The translations under genes and the position numbers were made by a program. The notes under the pieces are model-generated. The model was given only the letters and a program-made list of their open reading frames with translations. It was not told the DNA's origin and did not search any database. This document shows, one piece after another, positions 7,380 through 9,364 of a stretch of 64,000 bases of DNA (its first letter is position 1; every line of letters begins with the position of its first letter). The DNA comes from Tubiluchus corallicola (taxonomy: Eukaryota > Animalia > Priapulida), in NCBI GenBank assembly GCA_030141605.1, contig JAQGDQ010000481.1, positions 1 to 64,000 on the forward strand. Reading direction: 5' to 3'.

Positions 7380-7781
7380 TTTATTATTAGTTCTGCATTT
7401 GTACACCGTGTTGCGACCGTAGTTTCGACCAACATTTCCCGCTCGGTCAATTTTTCTGTCTCCTTTATGAACTTAATAAGATTTAATAAATAATAATAAT
7501 AATAATGATAATAATAATAATAATAATAATAATAATAATAATAATAATAATAATAATAATAATAATAATAATAATAATAATAATAATAATAATAATAATA
7601 ATAATAATAATAATTATTATTATTATTTTTCTGTCTCCAAGATGACCAGCTTCCTCAACACGTCCATCAGCTTCACTAAAACTTCCCGGACAATTGCAGT
7701 CTTCTGGAACTATTATCAGAAGATTTTCCTGTTGAATTTTTGTTCCAAATTCCGGTGAGGATGCCACAAACTGGTTAAATT
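7380..7781 (-). CDS. STING1: STING-family exon (middle of the CDN-binding domain), interrupted by a retro-insertion
   Basis: Acceptor tttttacag| and donor |gtgagt. With the insertion removed it reads EFNQFVASSPEFGTKIQQENLLIIVPEDCNCPGSFSEADGRVEEAGHLGDRKIDRAGNVGRNYGRNTVYKCRTNNK, matching STING LYILLPLDC...ADPNI...DRAGIKDRVYSNSIY. Confidence 0.85.
7450..7638 (+). mobile_element. Very short 5'-truncated retro-insertion, AATAAA plus (TAA)n tail, with a 14-bp target-site duplication
   Basis: ATTTTTCTGTCTCC at 7450-7463 and 7625-7638 flanks tttatgaacttaataagatttaataaa(taa)n. Confidence 0.85.
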
Positions 7782-8240
7782 CTGTAAAAATTGTGAATTA
7801 AAAAGATAATTGAGTCAATCTTTGTACGTAGCGTAACTATCTTAATTTCGAGATGATTGTAGTAGATTTATACATTACGGTTATTAAATTTTTGGAATCA
7901 TGGTTAATCATTAAAAATAATTTTAAAAAAGTCAAAATTGGAACTAATCTAGGAACTAGAAATCAGTATTTTTGCGACAAGTCCAAATAATTATGTTAAA
8001 ACAGATAATTTTCCATAATTACAGACAACTCCTACTCAAACTCTTTGCACGTTTTTTATTCCAGAGCTTAGAAAATAAAAAATCAAATTGCTATTTTTGG
8101 CAAAAGAAAATGACAAAGCCAAATAACTTTTGGCACTTTAAACTGATAACTGATATTTACAATTTGCAATCATCATGCAGATATTTCTACTTCTGACACA
8201 GAGCTACATTATAAGACATCACTGTCTCTGAGATGCTTAC

Positions 8241-8589
8241 CAGGCAAAATGATCCTCAAATACCCCAAGTAGTACGACCATGCCAAGCCCGCACCTACAT
8301 GGGTTGGGATAGACTGTAGTGAGGAAACAGTTTCCTCAAATTGCTGTTCGTCACTTTGTGAAATTCGTAGCGCTATCAAATCAGAAATGGTGGCCAGATC
8401 TTTGACTAGAATGATGTCATACTGCCCTCTGAATGCTGTATTTGAAGTGAGGAGAAATTTAACAGTTCTGTGAAACTCTCGCATTTGCGACTGCAGCTCC
8501 TCTGGCGACATGTTAACGTCTCCACATTGTGACATCTCATAGAGGTTCATCAACAGTGTTGCAAATTCACCAACAAAATAAGTCTCAAC
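8241..8589 (-). CDS. STING1: STING-family exon: C-terminal half of a CDN-binding domain, linker, then the start helix of a CDN-binding domain
   Basis: ttatag|VETYFVGEFATLLMNLYEMSQ...EELQSQMREFHRTVKFLL (cf. CVLEYATPLQTLFAMSQ...EDRLEQAKLFCRTLEDIL), then VGAGLAWSYYLGYLRIILP G|gtaagc (cf. VAHGLAWSYYIGYLRLILP). Phase 1 matches the 7781 acceptor. Confidence 0.9.
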
Positions 8590-9337
8590 CTATAATGAAC
8601 ACCAGTAATTAAAATATACATCCGACCAAAGAACAAATGAACGAATCAACCAGTCAATTAATCTACTATAACCATTCAGCCAGTCGGTAGTCGTGCTTTT
8701 ACAGCATTTGCCTTATCAGTGTAAGTGTTTAGTAACTAACACTGATTGATCATCTCTGTAAAGCCTTCTCTGTAAAGCCTTATTTCAGTGATTATCAATG
8801 TTTTTTAATGGCAAATAAGGATTATTAAAAATATATTATGCGCACACGTTTTATCATTTAGTTAGATGGACAATGGTCAGTAAAACAGTCAGTGAATTGG
8901 TTGGTCTGTCAGTGAGACGGCCAGCCAGTCAGCAAATCAGACAAAATTCAGTTTGGAAAGTTAGTCCGCAATACTATGTTCCACTATAATAAGTGTTTTA
9001 GCTTGTAAAAAAGTTAGTTTATAAGTCTTGCAACAGCCTGATTTTTTATGAATTTAGCAATTACAGAAGAATAATGCTTCGCCCCTGACGAAAAAATTGC
9101 AAAATATATCCCTAGATTGCTATAGAAATCCATATGAATAGTATAATATAAAATTAGCTCATATACGTGTAATAGATCAATTTCTCAATAAAAAATGTAA
9201 AATCATGAAATGATGAAATTACAAAATTATGGAAAAAACTTTATATAATACGTTACAGTGCTTGCATATATTCAAGTCACACTATTAAAGTAAATAAAAT
9301 ACATTAGGTGTAATTTAATAAATTACACTTCACGAAC

Positions 9338-9364
9338 GTTTAACGAAGCAGGTACATCAGACAT
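9338..9364 (-). CDS. Candidate first coding exon of the STING-like gene (MSDVPASLN)
   Basis: aaaATG at 9364, about 100 bp downstream of a TATA box. The phase-0 donor AAC|gttcgt is compatible with the 8589 acceptor. Inference only. Confidence 0.35.

Follow-up and report, generated by a model that had tools for sequence, protein, structure and literature searches.

On the minus strand of the 64-kb stretch of Tubiluchus corallicola DNA analyzed here (hereafter, the window), two neighboring exons encode the halves of a STING ligand-binding domain in the wrong order, the C-terminal half ahead of the N-terminal half. The initial annotation offered two readings of this order: a circularly permuted STING, which it favored, and a multi-STING-domain protein resembling a single-chain dimer. 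Here, we asked what kind of gene the two exons come from.

Exon Structure and Domain Order

The exon at 8589-8241 is 349 nt long and has an AG acceptor and a GTAAGC donor, and the exon at 7781-7380 has an AG acceptor and a GTGAGT donor. When an insertion in the second exon is omitted, they give 349+227=576 nt, that is, 192 open codons with both outer ends in phase 0, as the initial annotation had described. The unusual order was also reproduced. Pfam STING_LBD matched the exon 8589-8241 at profile positions 99-163 (E 3e-15, two stretches) and the exon 7781-7380 at positions 36-70 and then 72-95. A STING profile built in this analysis gave, downward along the minus strand, columns 104-167, then 4-24, 22-78, and 78-102. 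In addition, a window exon scored 56.4 bits with PF15009, against the curated cut-off of 27. A scan of the whole 64 kb with our own profile found no further STING exon, and tblastn with close relatives agreed; the same had been reported earlier for the neighborhood of the two exons.

The order is explained by an intact relative, P0003. The window exons match its residues 108-299, a stretch that runs from late in domain 1 through the linker into the first part of domain 2. Thus, the halves are out of order because they are the end of one domain followed by the start of the next, and the permutation is an illusion. The two exons are exons 3 and 4 of a gene that likely has five exons and encodes two tandem STING ligand-binding domains (hereafter, the twin STING); P0003 and the repeat structure point to an exon 2 and a last exon. 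Exon 3 (8241..8589, minus strand) carries the C-half of domain 1 and, after the linker, the helix with which domain 2 begins, and is 80% identical to P0003 residues 108-223. The next intron (7782..8240, minus strand; GT-AG, 459 nt, phase 1) is supported by a contig from run X6, which contains exon 3 and skips exactly 459 letters here. Exon 4 (7380..7781, minus strand) encodes the N-half of domain 2 through the lid, split by the insertion, and is 83-84% identical to P0003 residues 221-299. The last exon, and with it the 3′ end of the gene, is not in the window. In the remaining intron, positions 8656..8915 are a high-copy interspersed repeat, with depth two to three orders of magnitude above its flanks in runs X1, X2, and X4.

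A Spliced Contig with the Missing Parts

Contigs were compared with window positions 7616-11500 for the spliced X6 contig and 8920-9560 for the DNA contigs of X1 and X4; in the latter span, run X5 gave no match, perhaps owing to filtering. The X6 contig (1241 nt) joins window positions 9438-9328, 293 foreign letters, 8589-8240, and 7780-7625, where it has a loose end, followed by 322 more letters, and it lacks the insertion. The run, included for its species label, is labeled "RNA?" by guess, as none of the runs found by the run search is recorded as RNA, and the spliced form is represented by one contig from one study. Since the contig is 88-90% identical to the window, it is a related copy other than the window copy.

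A transcript that joins N-half exons upstream had been named beforehand as the observation that would separate the two readings. The X6 contig has the N-half upstream of 8589 and runs 322 letters past the insertion site, which refutes the permuted form and supports the tandem one. Its coding part before 8589 is 37+293=330 nt, or 110 codons with the frame kept, corresponding to the 107 codons of P0003 plus three extra N-terminal residues of the window. By arithmetic, the contig has the length expected of 376 codons followed by a brief 3′ end. It carries about 80 letters above the ATG and aligns to the window from 9438 with 8 loose letters ahead, although contigs of this kind cannot show the true start. 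In the window, there is an in-frame stop seven codons above the ATG. The short leader and this stop leave no room for an N-terminal module.

Lesions of the Window Copy

What remains of exon 1 in the window (9326..9438, minus strand) is the 5′ UTR, the ATG at 9364, and 13 codons. The X6 contig matches 9438-9328 with 13 differences, and the X1 and X4 DNA contigs match to 9326. At this point (9323..9326, minus strand), there is a deletion breakpoint at 9326/9325 followed by an in-frame stop at 9325-9323, and 293 coding letters, comprising the remainder of exon 1 and an inferred exon 2, are missing from the window. The X1 and X4 contigs depart from the window at 9326 and run on in frame, with no intron, into the first helix of domain 1; our hand translation of this continuation agrees with P0003 residues 11-20. 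Accordingly, the phase-0 micro-exon MSDVPASLN proposed in the initial annotation does not exist, the next window codon being a stop. Nothing of the missing exons was recovered from the window by blastn, tblastn, or profile scans. Meanwhile, one X1 contig matches window positions 9223-9348 across the breakpoint without a difference, but only 23 letters lie on the exon side, against our bar of 31, and X1 may be the source sample. Both the intact and the deleted form seem to be present in X1.

The second lesion is the insertion in exon 4. It is 161 nt long (7464-7624), consists of a short AT-rich head and about 43 TAA units, and lies within 14-nt target-site duplications at 7450-7463 and 7625-7638 (whole feature 7450..7638, plus strand). 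Judging by its anatomy, it is probably a non-LTR retroposon's 3′ tail. Together with one copy of the target duplication it adds 175 nt, which shifts the frame, and a stop at 7485-7483 lies inside it, after a poly-Ile run and ahead of the lid arginines. Thus, it cannot simply be removed from the gene, as had been assumed. Long TAA runs like its tail also occur at window positions 16270-16600 and about 53860-53890, possibly from the same element family.

Furthermore, the window differs from the runs at 16 or more coding positions. Among the best-supported differences, 13 change a residue and 3 are silent, and two share one codon. In 7 of the 13 residue-changing differences listed, the runs and P0003 share a residue that differs from that of the window, as expected for decay of the window copy; one of these residues is the proline of the E-x-x-T-P motif.

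Taken together, the stop after codon 13, the missing exons, and the frameshift and stop in the insertion leave no open frame from the ATG through both domains, and the window copy is dead, which the initial annotation had not recognized from the deletion that starts within exon 1. The copy may be a null allele, or else a pseudogene paralogue of recent origin.

The surroundings contain several other features. Minisatellite arrays with units of about 65, 35, 109, and 120 nt lie on both sides of the gene (3140-4270, 5233-5388, 6118-6437, and 13680-15120, respectively), and a broken LINE-type reverse-transcriptase fragment lies at 334-1700 on the plus strand (RVT_1, E 2e-16). Scattered exons resembling an integrin alpha chain extend over about 22400-57900 on the plus strand (FG-GAP match at 33942-34253). 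Between them, on the opposite strand, about seven tandem units of about 2.45 kb occupy 37338-52352; most have an intronless frame of 353 codons with a rhodopsin-family GPCR match (7tm_1, E 7e-27).

Intact Relatives and Architecture

P0003 is 373 aa long and 80% identical to the window. Its STING domains lie at residues 10-181 and 201-372, with a gap of 19 residues between them, 9 residues before domain 1, and 1 residue after domain 2; the Pfam STING match is 232 bits in two stretches. The two halves are 41% identical. Pfam gave no TM (STING_TM) or TIR match in P0003, and the highest 19-residue hydropathy was 1.29; no TIR match was found in P0005 either. P0005 (62%) and P0004 have the same domain junction. 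These comparisons indicate that the intact gene encodes a pair of STING ligand-binding domains connected by a short linker. No membrane or TIR module was detected, which agrees with the initial annotation, and the relatives, with two whole domains in normal order, bear out its multi-domain alternative. A search of a protein atlas gave no usable match.

We compared 155 proteins (the best 150 of 345 matches, and others), 28 of which have two or more STING domains. Bare twins, defined by no more than 20 residues ahead of domain 1 and a gap of 17-36 residues, account for six rows from five genes: P0003, P0005 (whose second domain is cut short), two isoforms of Ornithodoros turicata, one protein of Capitella teleta, and P0128. 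P0007 was left out (gap of 51, partial, longer N-terminus). Most of the other multi-domain STINGs compared are TIR-STING repeats or have long spacers. For instance, P0008 of Ylistrum balloti is a chain of 1422 residues with four STING domains and TIR domains. In P0139 and P0141, a STING domain is fused to a caspase domain, and P0139 also has a TIR domain (TIR-STING-caspase). Two proteins of Priapulus caudatus, P0059 (XP_014670249.1, 184 residues) and P0054 (XP_014670212.1, 179 residues), contain one STING domain each and may be bare single domains or split gene models.

In a tree of 59 rows, the two domains of the twin-STING gene grouped together in one clade (97/97) that excluded the tick and Capitella pairs. 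The nearest named rows were two P. caudatus proteins, on a weak branch (88/20). Topology tests with 31 rows narrowly rejected grouping the gene with the tick (p-AU 0.040) and did not reject grouping it with Capitella (p-AU 0.165). From the own-clade tree and these tests, the domain duplication likely arose in the lineage of the window gene. Convergent origin of bare twins is moderately supported, for the tick only.

Predicted Fold and Pocket

With an alignment of 26 rows, AlphaFold2 modeled P0003 with a pLDDT of 89.6 and a pTM of 0.89; the five models agreed, and the linker had low confidence. Meanwhile, the single-sequence fold of the twin STING gave a pLDDT of 36, and a complex model of the two halves with cGAMP, in which the alignment was not used, scored 0.01. 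Foldseek matched the P0003 model to coral STING 8efn (E 4e-13); domain 1 aligned to 8efn with a Z of 22.8 and an rmsd of 1.4 over 172 residues, and also to human residues 154-336. P0003 is predicted to fold as one rigid two-domain body, since so high a pTM in a two-domain chain implies that the domains hold a constant position relative to each other. Its domains would probably form the usual V-shaped STING dimer in cis, as judged from pTM rather than coordinates, with a bias to be expected from an alignment rich in multi-domain STINGs and from the familiarity of AlphaFold2 with STING dimers.

Pocket residues (162, 167, 238, 240, 260, and 263) are given in human STING numbering. The equivalents of R232, R238, and Y240 are kept in both halves of P0003, and position 167 is aromatic (F/Y) in both. 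Domain 1 has G162/F167/E260/T263 (E-T-P), and domain 2 has S162/Y167/D260/A263 (D-A-V). Among the single-domain rows, D260 occurs in 2 of 127 and A263 in 12 of 127. The six pocket residues listed by the initial annotation are all present in the window, but they belong to two domains: the equivalents of E260 and T263 to domain 1, and those of Y167, R232, R238, and Y240 to domain 2. In coral STINGs, positions 162 and 263 are reported to set linkage specificity, 2′3′ versus 3′3′ (10.1101/2023.02.22.529553). Because the lid arginines and stacking aromatics are kept in both halves, the intact twin probably binds cyclic dinucleotides.

Promoter Region

The TATA box (9471-9464, i.e., 9464..9471 on the minus strand) and the kB site (9493-9484) reported earlier were found again by sequence scan. 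The latter is a perfect palindromic NF-kB consensus site (9484..9493, no strand assigned), 12 nt above the TATA box, and is the sole strict kB site in the window. In addition, there are a proximal kB-like site at 9522..9531 (plus strand) and a distal one at 9742..9751 (minus strand), the only two matches in 64 kb to a pattern that was chosen after the sites had been seen; both are upstream of the twin-STING gene. A putative CRE-type palindrome lies at 9678..9685 (no strand assigned). Neither kB count is above chance: counted once per strand, the strict site had a mean of 0.94 matches in shuffled sequences and 28 of 100 shuffles reached its count, and 26 of 100 shuffles reached the window count of the kB-like pattern. 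Thus, only the position of the strict site beside the TATA box is notable. Judged from this position, induction of the gene by NF-kB is rather likely.

Proposed Role and Alternatives

We propose that the two unlike domains would pair within one chain and form a single lopsided pocket, which would hold a cyclic dinucleotide without signaling. The twin STING would then be a ligand sink that damps or filters STING signaling. The kB site by the TATA box would suit a feedback brake on STING, as an NF-kB-inducible twin could be. The sink is the simplest role, since no output module was found, and it may be compared with human STING-beta, which lacks the TM helices and is reported to sequester cGAMP and inhibit signaling (PMC5934658). 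However, STINGs of invertebrates signal even though they lack the tail of the vertebrate protein (PMC6723221), so a protein without any known module need not be silent. A sink role has about the same chance as a signaling one. The explanation as a whole, a dead copy of a bare twin-STING gene whose product would form a cis pocket and bind ligand without signaling, could equally well prove right or wrong. A broader scenario is doubtful: animals would have repeatedly made an NF-kB-inducible, one-chain, asymmetric STING sponge tuned to one messenger, the same twin module would drive caspase/RNase heads here with the bare twin as their brake, and a null brake would be carried beside an intact one.

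As the main alternative, the intact twin could be an active soluble sensor, in which ligand would close the pocket and the closed chains would then line up side by side with one another, or join an adaptor or effector-fused twin STINGs (caspase or HEPN heads), to trigger or adjust a response. Both lids are intact in P0003, and STING activation proceeds via oligomers or filaments (PMC8204762). On the other hand, P0003 has no effector, TM, or tail, and no partner was identified here, and we consider such a sensor rather unlikely. It is unlikely that the domains pair in trans with other STING chains, as a dominant negative like STING-beta or as a cross-linker. The single-chain pTM of 0.89, the short gaps of 17-36 residues that recur across all bare twins, and the fact that the halves are only 41% identical with complementary pocket changes all argue for pairing within the chain. 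STING-beta itself keeps TBK1 binding and pairs with STING-alpha (PMC5934658), unlike the proposed sink.

The gene could also be longer than the recovered forms, with an effector domain on exons past the window or in another isoform. Its 3′ end lies outside the window, the TIR-STING-caspase P0139 is among the matches, and the whole-alignment search for long fused forms, which returned one unrelated TIR/WD40 protein, covered just 1331-3800 residues. However, there is the in-frame stop above the ATG, with the TATA box and kB site immediately upstream; the ends of P0003 and P0004 fall within about 2 residues of each other (though a stop codon at the P0003 end is not directly visible), and the X6 contig has the length of the short form. 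Moreover, an exon-3 query against proteins of 204-2000 residues gave only P0003 and P0004 among 93 candidates, a weak test for fused forms. A longer gene is quite unlikely. That the lesions of the window copy are an assembly artefact is very unlikely: most contigs differ by 1-4% from the window and carry an intact exon 1, but the X1 contig matches across the break, albeit with exon-side letters below our bar and from what may be the source sample. Moreover, a 14-nt target duplication cleanly brackets the insertion, and conserved sites carry residue changes of the kind left by decay. Finally, a circularly permuted single domain expressed from the micro-exon is extremely unlikely; the two exons do sum to one in-frame domain with phase-0 outer ends, and the exon 1 stump does contain two weak GT sites in phase 0, but intact DNA has no intron after codon 13, the spliced form has the N-half upstream, such a splice would stop within the insertion ahead of the lid, and all close relatives keep the tandem order. 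No transcript starting at the C-half and ending after the N-half was found among the X6 contig and the X1 and X4 DNA.

Significance and Comparison with Known Systems

The messengers are often asymmetric, yet a homodimeric STING has to meet both of their bases with identical residues. In a one-chain twin, each half can evolve on its own, and the halves here differ at the positions reported for linkage specificity. A small, soluble, natural twin offers a direct test of whether asymmetry buys selectivity. If the sink model holds, it would be a host-made nucleotide sink, and it would also be a ready scaffold for messenger biosensors. Since the window copy is dead, its value lies in the intact gene to which it points.

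Literature searches, which covered main texts outside subscription journals, turned up no account of a STING with two domains and no effector; the supplements of PMC10732462, which list many eukaryotic STINGs, may include such proteins. In the main text of that paper, only TM-STING and TIR-STING are named as shared architectures, and the word "tandem" is absent. In PMC4117786, TM-less STING models are treated as annotation errors. The bare twin is apparently an undescribed but database-visible STING variant.

The twin STING can be compared with four known groups. It shares the fold of metazoan TM-STING (human; coral Sp-STING1/3, PDB 8efm and 8efn; Z 21-23, rmsd 1.4-1.9), with the lid arginines and stacking aromatics kept. 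However, it has no TM helices or tail, the canonical four-helix membrane domain being absent from P0003 with its 9 residues before domain 1, and it has two unlike domains per chain, whereas TM-STING is a homodimer of identical chains. With the TIR-STINGs and double TIR/double STING proteins of oyster and other lophotrochozoans (PDB 6wt6/6wt7; PMC11103948, on oyster proteins having two of each domain), it shares the occurrence of two STING domains per chain; those proteins have TIR or a spacer of 160-250 residues before and between the domains, whereas the twin has a gap of 17-19 residues and no effector. Like human STING-beta, it is TM-less, but STING-beta is a single-domain transcript isoform (PMC5934658), and the twin is a separate gene with a built-in second domain. 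The fourth group is O. turicata XP_064457177.1/XP_064457176.1, C. teleta ELT98160.1, and P0128, all uncharacterized gene models, which have the same domain-linker-domain layout with at most 20 residues before domain 1 and gaps of 18-36; nevertheless, each pair stands apart in the tree, and the pockets of the Capitella protein and P0128 are more eroded.
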